A DNA stretch of 20,000 nt from Folioceros fuciformis. Its lineage: Eukaryota. Position numbers and translations under genes: made by a program. This document shows, piece by piece, positions 1,140 to 19,504 of this stretch. Positions within the stretch are counted from its first letter, which is position 1. Each line of letters opens with the position of its first letter. A model generated the notes under the pieces. It saw nothing but the letters and a program-made list of their open reading frames with translations. It searched no databases and had not been told where the DNA came from. The stretch spans positions 239,131 to 259,130 of the forward strand of contig JBNGIO010006178.1 in the NCBI GenBank assembly GCA_049999805.1. Reading direction: 5' to 3'.

Positions 1140-1800
1140 TGTCATTATCATTATCATTGCTCCATACACATTGCTTCACACCCTTTACCATCATTGCTCA
1201 ACCACCTTCATTTGGGCCTAGTGCTCTACACCACTCTACCATCATTGCTCAACCACCCAACTGCCCCTGCCCCCTGTGCCCATTGCTCCACCCCGCTTTA
1301 TCATCCTACTCAACCCATTGCTCCATATTGCTCTATCATCATCCTACGCCCATTGCTCCACGCCCTCTATCGTCATTGCTCAACCCATTGCTCCACATCG
1401 TTCTATCTTCATCCTGCGCTCATTGCTCTACACCCACACCCATTACTCAACCCATTGCTCCATTGCTCCATCGCTCTATCATCATTGCTCTATATTGCTC
1501 TACACCGCTCTATATCATTGCTCTACGGCACCCATCGTTCTACACCGCTCTATATCATTGCTCTAGGGTACCCATCGTTTTACACCACTCTACATCATTG
1601 CTCTATACTCTACGGTACCCATCCTTCTACACCGCTCTATCATCATTGCTCTACATTGCTCTACAGCTCTACATTTACGTAATTCCACATTGCTCGGTGC
1701 CTCCCCATTACGCTACATCCACACTCTAGCACCGTAAACATCCATAAACATTTCAATCGCTCCTTACCATAAACATATTATTGCTCCTTACCACTCCGCT
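1140..1800. repeat. Low-complexity C/T-rich minisatellite built from CATTGCTC and TACACCGCTCTA modules
   Basis: (C)ATTGCTC recurs more than 20 times. A 40-bp higher-order unit is visible at 1500-1539, 1540-1579 and, with an insertion, 1580-1626. The + strand is strongly G-poor. Confidence 0.85.
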
Positions 1801-13677: not shown

Positions 13678-15271
13678 TCACGTAGACACCTCTGGGAATA
13701 GGTCCGATTGCAAGGGTTCTCCAGGTTGCAATCCAGGGTTGTACCCTGCTTCCACCCATACAGAATGCATTGTCCCTGGAATTCAGGGGCCAGAACTTGT
13801 GACACTTACATCTTGGAGGTGACGTAAACGAGCGGGAAGGAAAGGAAGGGAAAGGAACGAAGGTGACAGGCAGGGGGGCACACCTGGGCGAGGATCGAAA
13901 AAGACTTGATCACCAACCCAGCGAGTGGCATACGCTCTTCTGCGAAGAGTTGAAGTCTCTATGCCAGGAGCTCCGTGGAAAGCGAAGCTTTGGTGCACAA
14001 GACAGTCGCCTGGGTCAAGGTCCCAGGTTAACAGCTCCAACTGGACCAACAGAAACACGAAACTGCGCTCAGCATCAACATGACGCTGCTACGTTTGGGG
14101 ACATGTGTCGAAGATGTTGCTGGTAGATGAAACTCTCAACTTAGGTTCTCTGACCTCATCGAGCTTGCTCTCAATGTCTGGAATCTCAGGCAGGCTCTCA
14201 GAAGAAGAGGCCTTGTACCGCTCCTGGTCACCCGAAAACGAAGCAATCCTGCAAGCGCCATCAAAGTCGGGCGGCTCAGCAGCGTCGCCCCGCTCATGGG
14301 TAGAGCACCAACGTATCCTGCCTTCAAAACAGTATACGAGGGCCTACGAGCCAGACGACAGGCATTGATTGACGTGTATACATACCTATGAACCACCTTC
14401 CACTTATGCGATCCCTTGACATACTGAAGACACGCCGTCTTGGGAATATGGTCCAGAGCAAGCCACAAGGAGATCACCTGCTCACCCTTCAAGGGCCAGT
14501 AGGAGTGATCATTGTGCCACGGAGTCTTGGTGCTGGTTCCAGGCTCTTTGACGAACAACTGGTCATAAAAGAGTCTCACGCTCTTGGCCCTACACCACGC
14601 ATGGATTCACACTACAAACTCAGGCACGTCATTCCACACCACAACGGTCACCCAACCCTCCCGACCAGGCCAGGCCACCCCCAGTACCGTGTCATAGTCC
14701 TGGCAATCTCCCCAGCAGGAGACTGAAACACAAACTCGCGCATCACATGATGCCGCTTCCACAGAAACTGGTCATCATGAAAACGCTCCGCCTGAACAAT
14801 CAACACCCACCAATCAGCAACACCGACATCCCACAGACTTGCCAGCAGGTTCAGGAGCGGAAACTGCACCGTGCCAGGCTTAGCATGCTCGTCGCAGAGA
14901 GGACCTGCACGAGCATGAATTCCGCGGCCCTCAGAAAGAAGCCCTCACACTGACAAAGCCCTGCCTGCCTCTCACTCCATGGAAGTCGTCTTACCCGGAT
15001 TCTTCAGGTTGATCTCCGCTGCATCACGCAGCTTGTGAATCCAGTCGGAACCGAACAGCCCGCGCAGAACCACGGCACCATCCTCCTCGAAACGTCGAAC
15101 ATCCTGCTCCGATATCCTGCACTCCACAACGTTATCCCATGTCGCCAGCAAAACCTTCCCCTCCTCCTCTCACGTCCCTCTCCCATCACAAAAACCCCAC
15201 CTGGAGCCTCCCGCGGGCGCACTGGTTGCAAGCGCCCGGAATCGAGCCCAACTGCGCAGGCCTGCCCTCAT
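13678..15271 (-). CDS. Phytanoyl-CoA dioxygenase (PhyH) family Fe(II)/2-oxoglutarate dioxygenase, 8 exons, ~294 aa, putative mitochondrial presequence
   Basis: Exons 15271-15201, 15116-14995, 14904-14870, 14791-14688, 14589-14386, 14248-14155, 14040-13884 and 13775-13678, all GT-AG, total 885 nt. Motifs: FEEDGAVVLRGLF, LFVKEPGTSTKTPWHND (HxD), ISLWLALD, LQYVKGSHKW, LDPGDCLVHQSFAFHGAPG (distal His), RRAYATRW (2OG-binding Arg). N-terminus MRAGLRSWARFRALATS is Arg/Ala/Ser-rich and free of acidic residues. Confidence 0.9.
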
Positions 15272-15449
15272 CTTGCCTCTCGCTTCTATCAGTAACGATG
15301 CGTCCGTCTTCCCCTTACCAGCCGGCAGTGTGAAAGTTCACCAGAACTTCTTTTTAAAATGCGGCGGCCATTGCCGGAAGCGGTAGCCTGTCTGACAAGC
15401 AAGCAATCGAGCTTACTTGTCTCGCACCGCAGCGAGCCCCGACACTTGG
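15272..15449. promoter_or_regulatory. Putative bidirectional promoter / shared 5' region of the PhyH-like and SIA1-like genes
   Basis: Only 178 bp separates the divergent start codons at 15271 (-) and 15450 (+). Confidence 0.7.
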
Positions 15450-16853
15450 ATGGCACGGCAGGGACGGAGCCGGAGGTGCGAACCCTCGGGGCCGCCGCGA
15501 ACCTTCCTCCTCCTCCCGACGGTCCTGCTGCTCTCGACGGCGGGGCTTCTGGCCCTACTTCACCACCAGCATGGCGCTCCCGGACAGCGGGAGATGGCGA
15601 CTTTGCGGGCTTTCCAGGACAATGTGGCACAATGTGTGGGACGCAACGGGCTGGGGCTGCAAGCGGAGGTGAAGGACGAATGCAGGATTGAAGTGCGCTA
15701 CCCTCCGGGTACCAACAGCACGTGGTACAGCACTCAGTTTCGCCGGGTGGAGGCGACATCCTTCGAGCTCAACGTGTGCGACGCTGTGCAGCTCTGGGAG
15801 CAGTACCGGAACGTGACGACGGTCCTGACGCGGGAGTACCTAGATGCCCGGCCTGACGGCTGGCTGGAGTACGCGGCCAAGCGAATTGCGCAGCTGGGGT
15901 CCGACAAGTGCTACAACCGGAGCAGATGCGAGGACGAACTCTCCCTCGTGCTCCCTACAAGGCCACCATTCCGCCCCCGCCAGTTCCGCACCTGCGCGGT
16001 GGTAGGCAATTCGGGGGACCTGCTCAAAACGGAGTTCGGGGCGGAGATCGACGCCCACGATGCCGTGTTCCGGGAGAACGAGGCGGAGGTGAGCTCAGCG
16101 TATGCAAAACACGTGGGGTTGAAGCGGACGTTCCGGCTCATCGGCCGGGGGATAGCGCGGAGTATGGAGCGGGTGGTGGAAGGGGCGGAGGAAGAGGTAG
16201 TGGTGATCAAGAGCCTCATCCACCGCGACTTCAACGCCAAGATCAGGCGGCTGCCGAACCCCGTCTACCTCTTCCAGGGCGTGGTGCTGCGGCGGGGGGC
16301 CAAGGGCACGGGGATCAAGGCCGTGGAGCTCGCGCTCTCTATGTGCGACAGTGTGGACATGTACGGCTTCACTGTGGATCCCGGGTACGCGGGCTGGACC
16401 AGGTACTTCTCTGCGTCGCGGACGGGACACAATCCGTTGCAGGGAAGGGCGTACTACCAGCTGCTGGAGTGTCTCGGGGTGTTCAGGATTCATTCCCCCA
16501 TGCGGGAGCGGAGGAAGCAGGACTGGTCCGTGGTTCCAGGGAGGGAGGCGGTGCGGGAGGCTTACGATGCCTCTGTGAGGTTGAAGGGGCGGGAGCCCGG
16601 GCCGTTTGCGTCCTGCCAGGTTTGGGCGGACGGGAAGGAGGAGGCGGGGCCGGCGTTCGGGGCCCCGGGTATGAGCCAGGTGCGCAGGGCGTCGCAATAT
16701 AATAAGTGGGAGATGCTCGGGGTGGAGGATTTGCGACCTGAGGCACAAGAGCATCTCCGTGCGATGCAGGGGGTGTCTCTTTACAAGCTGGATGGAAACA
16801 AGCTGGATAACCTGATTTGTGTGAGGCACAACTCCGTCGGCGCCATTGCATGA
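15450..16853 (+). CDS. SIA1: Sialyltransferase-like protein (CAZy GT29), SIA1/MGP2 type, intronless, 467 aa, type II membrane protein
   Basis: Single ORF from the first ATG (15450). N-terminal hydrophobic anchor FLLLPTVLLLSTAGLLALL; sialylmotif L CAVVGNSGDLLKTEFGAEIDAHDAVFR; motif S GTGIKAVELALSMCDSVDMYGF. The blocks LWEQYRNVTTVLTREYLD, GHNPLQGRAYYQLLECLGV and YKLDGNKLDNLICVRH closely match Arabidopsis MGP2/SIA1 as I recall it. Confidence 0.95.
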   Translation: MARQGRSRRCEPSGPPRTFLLLPTVLLLSTAGLLALLHHQHGAPGQREMATLRAFQDNVAQCVGRNGLGLQAEVKDECRIEVRYPPGTNSTWYSTQFRRVEATSFELNVCDAVQLWEQYRNVTTVLTREYLDARPDGWLEYAAKRIAQLGSDKCYNRSRCEDELSLVLPTRPPFRPRQFRTCAVVGNSGDLLKTEFGAEIDAHDAVFRENEAEVSSAYAKHVGLKRTFRLIGRGIARSMERVVEGAEEEVVVIKSLIHRDFNAKIRRLPNPVYLFQGVVLRRGAKGTGIKAVELALSMCDSVDMYGFTVDPGYAGWTRYFSASRTGHNPLQGRAYYQLLECLGVFRIHSPMRERRKQDWSVVPGREAVREAYDASVRLKGREPGPFASCQVWADGKEEAGPAFGAPGMSQVRRASQYNKWEMLGVEDLRPEAQEHLRAMQGVSLYKLDGNKLDNLICVRHNSVGAIA

Positions 16854-17333
16854 TGAGAAACTCAAAATGCCGCACGCATCATTCTGCGCGCGCAATTGAT
16901 TGCCAAGAAACTCCAGCACGTTCCAAGGTGACATGCAAAATGGTCTACCACTGTTTGGACAAAACCTCGTTTCCGTGCTGTTTGCCATCGCATCGGCAGG
17001 TGAGTTCATCGCCATGTTTTCCCCAGGGACGCACACAGCTTGTTCCTAATAACACGACACCGAGACGACTCCGAACGAGATTCCCGGCAGACTCTTCTCT
17101 TCTTACTCCTGTTCTTTCCTCTTCGGGGGAGAACTTGGCCAGCGACGGAGTACTCACACCCCGGGATGCTTCTTGCTCTTTGTCCATTTAAGACAAAACA
17201 GCGGGCGCAGAGTTGGAAGCGTGGCGACTAAAGCTCTAGCGTGGAAGTGGATGAACGCCGTGATCCGTTATGCATATTTTCGCAAAACTGGAACGAAAAC
17301 GATTGTGGTCTCAAATGTGTTCTTACATCATTG

Positions 17334-17399
17334 CATCTCCTGCCGACAGTCAGGACAAGGAAGCCCCATCTCCTGCCGACAGTCGGGACAAGGCAGCCC
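17334..17399. repeat. 33-bp tandem duplication (2 copies, 2 mismatches)
   Basis: catctcctgccgacagtcAggacaaggAagccc followed by catctcctgccgacagtcGggacaaggCagccc, between the convergent SIA1 and RRP42 3' ends. Confidence 0.9.
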
Positions 17400-17619
17400 C
17401 GAGGAGGTGGTCATCCTTCTGATCAAAACCAGATCAAATGGGGTCTCGCCGCAAGTGCTATTCCCCATTGTTGGCACCTGTTCAGAAAGCTTTTCACAGT
17501 AGTCCTGCTGCCACCATTTATCGGTAGACCCGCGAAATGCTCACACCTTACATTGTACCGATTGTCCTTTGGTTATTAGCTCCAATTCGGAAACAGATTG
17601 CAACATGACGGCCGGCCTT

Positions 17620-18462
17620 TCACTTGACGTTCTCCACTTGCACGATCACCTTTCTGCTCAACTGCTTAGCTACGCTAAACATGTCCAGCAGAACGCCTGG
17701 ACTCAGACCAGCTCCATTTCTCTTGGTCACGCCAGTGATCATCCCCTGCGGATTCACAGCCACGGACACCGCAGAGCTGAAACACGATTCCTCTTCAGCG
17801 GTAGCATCCACAATATAATGCTTCCCGACCTTAGTCAAGGTAACCAGAATCGGAACCCGTGAAGCGTCCAGCTTCGAGTAGCCCTCGGGATTTCCATCGT
17901 CCACATCCACTTCGACCTCCGCGTCCTCAGACCCAGCAGAAGTAATCTCAACCTTGGGAATGCCCGTGTTAGCGAGAGCAGCCTTAACGGCGATGGAGAG
18001 ACAGTCCAGCAAATTGCCGTCGGAGCTCAGAACCAAACCGTCAATGTACAACACCCAGCAGATCTTGGCGTCCAGCAACCCTAAGGAGGCCGGGTCTATG
18101 GCGGCCCCAGCCCCGTTCCCGCCCCCCAGGAGGCTCCTCTCCAGCGCTCCGACCAGCTCCTGAGAGAGGTCGTCGCCTCCCCTGCCCTGAAACTCGGGGG
18201 CTGCAGTGGCCGAGCAGTCCACCGAGACGAGCATGTAGCCGTGCCCAGGACGGCCTGCCGGAGGCGTGCCCAGCTCCGCCTTCACGCTGGCTATCACATC
18301 CGTGCCTCCCAGCCTCACCCGCGCTGATCCATTGGCCAGTGGAATCACTCCAGGCTCCACTGAGAAGCGCCGGTACTGGAGGCGACTGCGACCGTCGGCT
18401 CGCAGATCGTCATAAACGCCGCCCTCGGTGTATCTCCGCTCTGCTTTCGACACTACTCCCAT
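17620..18462 (-). CDS. RRP42: Exosome complex component RRP42 (EXOSC7; RNase PH-like), intronless, 280 aa
   Basis: ORF from ATG 18462 (MGVVSKAERRY...DLRADGR) with ANGSARVRLGGTDVIASVKAELG, VDCSATAAPEFQGRGG, CWVLYIDGLVLSSDGNLLD and YIVDATAEEE, all typical of plant RRP42. Confidence 0.95.
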   Translation of the reverse strand: MGVVSKAERRYTEGGVYDDLRADGRSRLQYRRFSVEPGVIPLANGSARVRLGGTDVIASVKAELGTPPAGRPGHGYMLVSVDCSATAAPEFQGRGGDDLSQELVGALERSLLGGGNGAGAAIDPASLGLLDAKICWVLYIDGLVLSSDGNLLDCLSIAVKAALANTGIPKVEITSAGSEDAEVEVDVDDGNPEGYSKLDASRVPILVTLTKVGKHYIVDATAEEESCFSSAVSVAVNPQGMITGVTKRNGAGLSPGVLLDMFSVAKQLSRKVIVQVENVK

Positions 18463-18522
18463 CGTCGCCACCACGAACGGAAAAAAGTTGAGAGAGCAAT
18501 GAACGAAGCCTGTCTGGAACTT

Positions 18523-18530
18523 AACCCTAA
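18523..18530. promoter_or_regulatory. Telo-box-like motif (AACCCTAA) upstream of RRP42
   Basis: AACCCTAA lies ~60 nt upstream of the RRP42 ATG. Telo-boxes are characteristic of plant ribosome-biogenesis gene promoters and 5' UTRs. Confidence 0.5.
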
Positions 18531-18567
18531 TCCGACAGGAAGGGAGGACGCTTCCACAACCATCTAG

Positions 18568-19504
18568 CTATGCGGACTCCCTGCGAGACTTCTTCTGCTT
18601 CTTCCTCTGCTTTGGTACATCTCCTTTACCAGCAACCGTATGCCTCTCCTGAGGTTCTTCAATTGGCCGCTTCGGTGGCGGAGTCCTGGTTTCTGCAGCC
18701 AGCCAGAAAGGTTTTGCTATGACTTGATGAAAGCAAAAGAGACAAACATGAACGGGAGATTTTCAGACCGAATGCAACACCCTCTGGACAGAATGTGCGT
18801 ACCCTCGCTCGCAGGGACGCTGCGCTTAATTTCTCTTTCAGACCTGTCCTCTCCTGGCACGGCAGCTTCCCTTCCAGCAGCCCGAACGAAGCTGACAGAG
18901 TGAGAAATACTTCTGACTGGGCAAGGCACATCCGAGGAAGTGTCAGAAGCTGGGGCAAACAGCTGGGTTCAGGACCATGCTTCGAACATAACGCAGTTGT
19001 AAAAGCAGAAGGACAAGGGGGACTTGACAAACCGGCAAAAGAATCTGTAGAGGATATAGGCACAAAAGCATACGCCTCAGGTCCCTCCAGCTTCTCCTCT
19101 TTAACTACACTGAAGCAGTCTCCTGCAGCCACAAGAGTTCAGAGGCAAGCACACCTCAAGGTGACTGCAGCTAGAGTCTCAAATGAGGGCTTACCTTGCG
19201 AATTAAAAAAATGACCGAGCTTCCCATCGGCGGCAGCTGTGTGCATCCTCCATTGCTTGTCCACGAGATCATGGGGTCCCAGCTGCAGGACAGCCAGGCA
19301 ACATCAATACGGGATTCGGGACGCATCAAGGACAACAAACAGTTCGCAGAAGGCGGGCAGGGTTGGAGGTACATATTGAGACGGAATTCGCACAAGCCAT
19401 AACTCCGTGTTGTCTGCCGTGGCTTCCTCGGCCAGCGACTCGAACTTGTCTAATCTCTTGAAATGTTTCGGTGGCATATACCTATCCTCCTCTGCGTTCT
19501 CCAT
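18568..19504 (-). CDS. Mediator-associated protein 2-like / RNA polymerase I RPA34-like protein, 5 exons, ~182-190 aa
   Basis: Exons 19504-19373, 19282-19195, 19122-19033, 18916-18803 and 18716 (or 18692)-18568, all GT-AG and in phase. Y-x-PP-x-x-F and ELWLVRIP N-terminal motifs, DGKLG-x-F, ISHSVSFVR and a basic tail (KQRKKQKKSRR) fit the plant MAP2 / RPA34-like architecture (from memory; the sequence is divergent). Confidence 0.75.

Follow-up and report, generated by a model that had tools for sequence, protein, structure and literature searches.

An RPA34/NRPA14-like gene and an intronless RRP42 gene in tandem in Folioceros fuciformis, separated by an open 105-nucleotide spacer

The 20,000-nucleotide (nt) stretch of Folioceros fuciformis DNA analyzed here, referred to as the window (assembly GCA_049999805.1, contig JBNGIO010006178.1, positions 239,131 to 259,130 of the forward strand), carries on its minus strand an RPA34/NRPA14-like gene followed head to tail by RRP42. 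Only 105 nt, open in the frame of both genes, lie between the stop codon of the first and the start codon of the second. The question raised by this arrangement, as put forward in an initial annotation of the locus, is whether both open reading frames (ORFs) share one messenger RNA (mRNA) and are occasionally joined into a fusion protein by readthrough of the stop codon, or whether they are neighbouring genes whose frames happen to agree. We consider it fairly probable that they constitute a tandem pair of separate nuclear streptophyte genes, the second of them intronless, with overlapping or readthrough transcription, RRP42 being produced from its own mRNA and the shared open frame being a coincidence. 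All positions given below are window positions, and the coordinates of the features are collected in Table 1.

The two genes and the frame they share

Direct reading of the locus confirmed the TAG, the exact 105-nt distance with its 35 sense codons, the in-frame RRP42 ATG and the GCA-TAG-CTAG context; every sequence statement of the initial annotation was in fact correct at its coordinates on the minus strand. The RRP42 ATG (18462-18460) lies in frame 0 with the first ORF when the latter is spliced as in the RNA contig described below. Both genes are real, RRP42 displaying its Pfam domains and the upstream product having liverwort homologues. RRP42 matches RNase_PH (PF01138, 3e-23) and RNase_PH_C (PF03725, 3.4e-10) and has 531 relatives at E <= 0.001. 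Among the 120 matches listed, the top ones are bryophyte proteins, several of them named RRP42, with identities of 60-65% over 98-99% of the query, the closest relative in this listing showing 65%. Its initial Met aligns, within three residues, with the N-termini of nine orthologues, and none of these nine shows a spacer-like N-terminal extension, while the C-terminus is about 10 residues shorter than theirs. All 280 codons of the ORF are undisturbed, the residues that do not vary among the 10 aligned sequences are retained, and the GC content at third codon positions (GC3), 0.69, is coding-like and above that of the flanking sequence.

Concerning the upstream gene, four introns interrupt a coding sequence of only 0.55 kilobases (kb). 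Local BLASTP comparison of the spliced product with the liverwort proteins P0128 (174 amino acids (aa), Calypogeia fissa, unnamed; 42.7% identity over 110 aa, E 2e-34) and P0130 (189 aa, Marchantia paleacea, hypothetical; 46.8% identity over 111 aa, E 1e-32) validates the gene model, since the match to these homologues runs from exon 1 into exon 4. Both came from an exhaustive HMMER search in which exon 1 (44 aa) was the query and which yielded six proteins, only these two being of the right size; P0126, P0127 and P0131 (2192-4119 aa) were set aside, and P0129 (a 265-aa internal repeat) was rejected, its match being confined to a 19-residue motif.

Family assignment of this product is more tentative. 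The whole spliced product was compared locally only, the Pfam, word-indexed and ESM Atlas queries being single exons: exons 1, 2 and 5 gave no Pfam family at E <= 10, the word-indexed search with exon 1 among longer proteins gave one candidate and none scored, and exon 1 reached a top score of 0.86 in the ESM Atlas with no family. P0128 and P0130 themselves match no Pfam family at E <= 0.1, and thus not PF08208. When P0130 was used as ESM Atlas query, the top three scores (0.93, 0.92 and 0.90) fell on clusters in which PF08208 is carried by 49%, 22% and 71% of the members, and 25 of the 30 hits were in the PF08208-carrying cluster set, which should be read as a lead and not as an alignment. 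The C-terminal 45 residues of the first-gene product are 29% Lys plus Arg. In Arabidopsis, the A34.5 homologue (At5g64680, NRPA14) was found in purified RNA polymerase I (Pol I), and plant NRPA14 is described as having little primary sequence conservation with yeast A34.5 and a Lys-rich C-terminal region (PMC4417161). On these sequence features, RPA34/NRPA14-like is a reasonable, though unproven, label. The name MAP2, used for the same product in the initial annotation, is not the result of any search.

How much weight the shared frame can bear depends on how often such a frame arises by chance. The spacer has a GC content of 0.51, and its GC3 in the shared frame, 0.57, lies between those of the first gene (0.53) and RRP42 (0.69), a comparison that over 35 codons decides nothing. 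Mononucleotide shuffling of the spacer left a 105-nt frame open in 0.286 of 20,000 cases, and first-order Markov models built on the non-coding sequence nearby did so in 0.290 of 20,000 simulations. In the sequence itself, 178 of 561 windows taken from nearby introns and untranslated regions (UTRs) and 12,524 of the 39,790 frames of the whole window were open over this length. An openness of ~0.3 multiplied by 1/3, for a length divisible by three, yields a joint chance of ~0.10, hence the shared open frame is not beyond chance, bearing out the reservation on frame and openness that the initial annotation had itself made. In other words, and as a caution, an in-frame, stop-free spacer of such length will be met by chance about once per ten such pairs. 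The +1 frame of the spacer is also open except for its first codon. The peptide encoded by the 35 codons matches nothing in Pfam at E <= 10, no Rfam family is found anywhere in the whole window, and folding of 18600-18440 reveals no excess structure (z = -0.39, with 70 of 200 shuffles folding at least as well).

RNA across the spacer and the source of RRP42 protein

The RNA evidence comes from run X1 (0.79 of 244 sampled words; the RNA status of the run is a guess in its record), which provided two contigs on the window, whereas runs X2 and X3 of the same study, in which almost none of the words occurred, gave nothing on it at 80% likeness. Record 2 of X1 is a contig of 1985 nt that follows the minus strand from 19649 to 17277 without mismatches. 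The four parts that it skips measure 90, 72, 116 and 110 nt and are bounded by CT..AC on the plus strand, that is GT..AG on the gene strand, hence the contig derives from spliced RNA. From 18692 to 17277 it is colinear with the genome, running through the last exon of the first gene, the spacer and RRP42 to its 3' end, with no intergenic splicing; at the contig end, 17277, the genome reads GCG and then AAAA. RNA coverage thus crosses the spacer with no gap of k-mer length, and at least some RNA links both genes.

A contig across two genes does not, however, prove a single molecule, and a k-mer assembler merges overlapping transcripts. Two 3' UTRs of the window are measurable, that of RRP42 with 343 nt (stop 17620, end 17277) and that of the convergent glycosyltransferase gene described below with 370 nt (stop 16853, end 17223). 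Since a UTR of 343-370 nt would reach more than 200 nt into RRP42, overlap between the transcripts of the first gene and of RRP42 is to be expected. The earlier proposal of one shared mRNA is supported as far as a continuous spliced contig over the spacer goes, but that contig does not amount to one molecule and bicistronic translation is not indicated. At the other end, where the first gene borders on AT-rich DNA, there is a 32-nt inverted repeat with 97% complementarity and a 7-nt loop, and the contig begins 5 nt inside one of its arms. This 5' end of the contig may be an assembly break rather than a transcription start, which makes the start of the first gene uncertain, and the repeat itself may be a small foldback or an element resembling a miniature inverted-repeat transposable element (MITE).

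Whether RRP42 could be translated from a two-gene RNA depends on what a scanning ribosome would meet on its way. The first ORF (ORF1) has a strong start context, with A at -3 and G at +4, and the RRP42 AUG is preceded by 10 other AUGs within 799 nt, which is no depletion with respect to shuffles (mean 12.7, standard deviation 3.3; P(<=10) = 0.26). One of them, at 18563-18561, immediately follows TAGCTAG, out of frame, and its ORF ends past the RRP42 AUG; on any RNA starting upstream it would be an overlapping upstream ORF (uORF) and would divert ribosomes. Given the strong ORF1 start and the ten AUGs, including the one in the spacer, scanning ribosomes would rarely reach RRP42, and reinitiation after an ORF of 182 codons is not expected. 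Translation from a two-gene RNA fits poorly, and we therefore infer an own RRP42 mRNA that starts within 18560-18463.

Comparison with described loci bears on the same point. Nuclear polycistrons exist in green algae (PMC7896298), and the present locus resembles them in that its spacer is short (many algal spacers measure about 100 nt or less), that no poly(A) signal can be recognised behind ORF1 and that a single RNA contig covers the two ORFs (PMC7896298, PMC11291117). The algal bicistrons work by leaky scanning, ORF2 output rising when the ORF1 start context is weakened and falling when it is strengthened (PMC11291117, PMC7896298). An extra AUG between the ORFs cuts ORF2 output to under half and an AUG restored in ORF1 brings it to background (PMC11291117), and the authors advise limiting the AUGs before ORF2 (PMC11291117, PMC7896298). 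Accordingly, the algal loci have a weak ORF1 start and few or no AUGs before ORF2, in contrast to the A(-3)/G(+4) start and the ten AUGs found here. Algal colinearity is also conserved over long times, whereas here it is absent from the relatives examined, and RRP42 similarity groups the organism of the window with land plants and not with chlorophytes.

Nearest among described phenomena are the Arabidopsis readthrough transcripts, which arise at 271 tandem loci (PMC9768141). In that study, the second ORF was rarely translated in seven of the eight cases tested, 202 second genes have their own start sites, and the joint RNAs are targets of nonsense-mediated decay (NMD) (PMC9768141). In common with these, the present genes are same-strand neighbours on one RNA, of which the second would be expected to have its own start; the second ORF would be poorly translatable, and the long region after the first stop would make the joint RNA an NMD substrate. 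The differences are that there is no intergenic splicing here and that the spacer measures only 105 nt.

Signals for a separate RRP42 start were searched for in and around the spacer. A motif scan of 18820-18440 found no AATAAA-like hexamer, TATA box, site II element or TGTAA, in agreement with the earlier statement that the spacer has no AATAAA-like signal. The telo-box also reported there is present as a match to AACCCTAA, 61-68 nt before the RRP42 ATG, but it is imperfect: the canonical 9-mer AAACCCTAA is absent from the spacer, and its five matches in the window are all at 462-1021. Two pyrimidine runs could be core-promoter Y patches for RRP42. In six of seven loci of one related metagenomic lineage, TTAGGGTT occurs in the same orientation 157 nt before the RRP42 ATG. 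In these seven loci (L003-L009), telomere-like 7-mers cluster around the RRP42 5' end (e.g. L003 2359-2371, 2704, 2994), with 7-12 per locus of 4.8-9.1 kb, and three 7-mers spaced 6 nt apart are located ~500 nt upstream of the RRP42 ATG.

The adjacency of the two genes was then compared with that in relatives. Calypogeia fissa has two NRPA14-like genes, on contigs of 34,336,743 and 20,206,424 bases, and its RRP42 (P0006) is on a 24,099,576-base contig; being on different contigs, the genes are not neighbours in this species. A metagenome contig scan provided nine RRP42 loci (59,601 nt in all), five of which include 2860 nt upstream of RRP42, and tblastn with the spliced product, P0128, P0129 and P0130 gave no NRPA14-like match at E <= 1 in any of the nine. 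Assembled runs are the only source for 33 of the best 120 RRP42 relatives, and for 27 of these 33 the longest contig is below 1497 nt, too short for both ORFs plus the spacer. Conserved adjacency in orthologous loci, which the initial annotation had suggested looking for, was hence found neither in Calypogeia fissa nor in the nine metagenome loci. A search of one literature library on RRP42 and bicistronic genes found no report of an RPA34-RRP42 gene pair.

Weighing the readings

In our preferred reading, the RNA of the first gene would not be cleanly ended within the 105 nt after the UAG, and either its 3' UTR or transcriptional readthrough would enter RRP42, so that short-read assembly would merge both genes into a single contig. 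RRP42 protein would be made from its own, shorter mRNA, with a 5' end within the spacer and 3' of the out-of-frame AUG at 18563, possibly near the telomere-like box and the pyrimidine runs. The open frame of the spacer would be a coincidence and any fusion protein trace-level translational noise. Both the separate start site of RRP42 (18560-18463) and the poly(A) position of the first gene are here inferred. The locus would then be one further tight tandem pair with overlapping or readthrough transcription, and a caution that neighbouring genes get merged by short-read contigs. Several points weigh against this reading. The RNA evidence consists of assembled contigs, and a true dicistronic mRNA would give the same single contig equally well. 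Given the motifs missing from 18820-18440, a promoter in the spacer rests on the imperfect telomere-like box and the two pyrimidine runs, which is modest evidence. The telo-box of the related lineage counts as one independent observation, judging from sequences that are 96-100% identical across L003-L009.

A true dicistronic mRNA would imply that the first gene has no terminator of its own and that RRP42 comes mainly or entirely from the two-gene RNA, by reinitiation, shunting or internal entry. The spliced contig without break or mismatch, the absence of an AATAAA-like motif in or near the spacer and a distance that leaves very little room for both a 3' UTR and a promoter are all in its favour, as is the precedent of the green-algal nuclear polycistrons (PMC7896298); the intronless RRP42 would likewise fit a retrocopy inserted into the first gene's 3' UTR and dependent on that gene's promoter. 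Nevertheless we judge it unlikely, as the contig shows no single transcript, and the 182-codon ORF1 with its strong start, the undepleted AUGs and the spacer uORF are the opposite of what the algal mechanism needs. The spacer lacks the excess structure looked for by folding, colinearity is not conserved in the relatives examined, and the Arabidopsis counterparts of such RNAs, in the cases described, have rarely translated second ORFs and are NMD targets (PMC9768141). If an obligate two-gene mRNA nevertheless yielded RRP42, it would extend functional nuclear bicistrons with a long, AUG-rich ORF1 to streptophytes and would need a translation mechanism other than leaky scanning. The most elaborate version, in which the 3' UTR of a gene for a Pol I subunit took up a retrocopy of RRP42 in the land-plant lineage, one promoter drives Pol I and exosome core subunits through an obligate two-gene mRNA, RRP42 is translated without scanning and slight UAG-CUAG readthrough adds some fusion, seems to us improbable indeed.

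The intronless state of RRP42 leads to a further alternative, that it is a passenger: a retrocopy in the 3' UTR of the first-gene mRNA, with little or no translation, while a working, intron-containing RRP42 resides elsewhere. RRP42 of L003-L009 is split into six tblastn blocks over ~2.2 kb, that is at least five introns, and that of L002 into four blocks, whereas L001 is colinear and may be a transcript. Other genes of the window are intron-rich, the first gene with its four introns included. An intronless RRP42 among them suggests retroposition or en-bloc intron loss. Together with the position of RRP42 inside the transcribed region of another gene and a C-terminus ~10 residues short of the nine orthologues, this is what a passenger would predict, but the intact 280-codon ORF with its invariant columns, and a coding-like GC3 that exceeds the flanks, speak against it. 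Traces of insertion are also missing, as the 3' end carries no poly(A) remnant beyond AAAA and there is no target-site duplication, the longest word common to both flanks being 8 nt, a length reached by 24% of shuffles. Old insertions lose both marks. We regard a passenger copy as unlikely. Retrogenes that use host transcription (PMC5470649, PMC5408686) resemble the present case in being intronless copies of intron-rich genes in the transcribed 3' region of another gene; here the poly(A) remnant, the target-site duplication and a known parental copy are missing. A possible alternative to retroposition is that the introns were lost en bloc at the original locus, with a later rearrangement. That a core exosome gene which is elsewhere rich in introns lacks them here is in itself of small, separate evolutionary interest.

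There remains programmed readthrough, in which the UAG at 18570-18568 would be decoded by a useful share of the ribosomes, the 35 codons would become a linker and a functional Pol I-subunit/exosome fusion of ~500 aa would result. In its favour, the two ORFs share an open frame and may be joined on one RNA, and GCA-stop-CUAG is the context of OPRL1 except for the stop codon (PMC4132726). The locus has in common with OPRL1, OPRK1, AQP4 and MAPK10 a CUAG right after the stop and an in-frame open extension, and with OPRL1 also GCA as last sense codon, but it differs in having UAG instead of UGA and an extension that runs into a whole second gene and not into a short tail (PMC4132726). Readthrough is efficient at UGA-CUAG, UGA-CUA alone giving 1.5% in human cells, while changing UGA to UAG in the OPRL1 context lowered it ~3-fold, and CUAUUA after UAG gave no stimulation in earlier plant work, as reported in the same source (PMC4132726). 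In Arabidopsis, readthrough candidates are reported to be enriched in TGA and to show no CUAG-type motif (PMC9293766). Of the known stimulatory contexts UGA-CUAG and UAG-CARYYA, neither is found here, the sequence being UAG-CUAGAU, in which CUAGAU does not fit the plant-virus CARYYA motif.

The remaining evidence runs in the same direction. No structure was found 3' of the stop, chance would give the frame and its openness with a probability of ~0.1 while a second frame is nearly open, the would-be linker is Cys- and Phe-rich with a GC3 below that of RRP42, the RRP42 N-terminus is a conserved protein start and the genes lie apart in other lineages. Five RRP42 relatives are longer (543-1381 aa) and look like merged gene models; the additional Pfam domains in them have no relation to PF08208, and none of the five carries an RPA34 domain, which is weak evidence. 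The readthrough fusion suggested initially thus finds no support in the stop codon, the downstream structure, the five longer relatives, gene adjacency or the statistics of the frame, and as a programmed event it is extremely improbable. Trace readthrough on a joint RNA is conceivable and would yield some fusion; nothing indicates selection for the fusion.

Feature coordinates and other parts of the window

Table 1. Positions of the features of the gene pair and of other elements of the window.
Feature	Coordinates	Strand	Basis or remark
RPA34/NRPA14-like gene, five exons	19649-19373, 19282-19194, 19121-19033, 18916-18803, 18692-18568	minus	spliced RNA contig
First-gene ORF, 182 codons (182 aa)	ATG 19504 to TAG 18570-18568	minus	contig exons joined by script
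RNA contig (X1, record 2), five blocks	19649-19373, 19282-19194, 19121-19033, 18916-18803, 18692-17277	minus	alignment without mismatches
Stop codon and context, GCA-TAG-CTAG	18564-18570	minus	read directly
Spacer, 105 nt, 35 sense codons (LDGCGS...FVVAT)	18463-18567	minus	open in frame of both ORFs
Out-of-frame AUG, U(-3)/G(+4), opening a 36-codon ORF	AUG 18563-18561, TAG 18455-18453	minus	sequence reading
Telomere-repeat-like box AACCCTAA (TTAGGGTT on gene strand)	18523-18530	plus	8/9 bases of AAACCCTAA
Two pyrimidine runs, possible Y patches	18548-18537, 18487-18479	minus	motif scan; putative
RRP42 coding sequence, 843 nt, 280 aa, no introns	17620-18462	minus	single ORF; RNase_PH and RNase_PH_C
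RRP42 3' UTR, 343 nt	17277-17619	minus	stop to end of RNA contig
Inverted repeat, 32-nt arms	19645-19676/19684-19715		97% complementary
Tandem duplication of a 33-nt unit in the RRP42 3' UTR	17334-17400		94% match
Glycosyltransferase family 29 gene	15417-17223	plus	PF00777
Phytanoyl-CoA dioxygenase (PhyH) exon	14139-14606	minus	PF05721
C-rich tandem repeats	1278-1793		periods 35/70, 40/47 and 24 nt
Exact AAACCCTAA 9-mers	462, 673, 820, 971, 1013		AT-rich tandem repeats

The gene facing RRP42 is a convergent, sialyltransferase-like member of glycosyltransferase family 29 (PF00777, 5.9e-24). With its single uninterrupted ORF it is, after RRP42, another gene that seems to lack introns although the rest of the window is intron-rich, and only 53 nt separate the end of its RNA contig, at 17223, from that of the RRP42 contig. 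The phytanoyl-CoA dioxygenase exon (PF05721, 9.6e-16) belongs to a gene that is evidently split by introns.

At the far end of the window, the five exact AAACCCTAA 9-mers, against 0.15 per window expected by chance, are part of AT-rich tandem repeats whose periods are 32 and 42 nt, and the region 462-1030 looks like an interstitial telomere-like satellite. The C-rich tandem repeats beside it result in long spurious ORFs on the plus strand, and 1001-2000 shows a strong negative GC skew, from -0.43 to -0.58.

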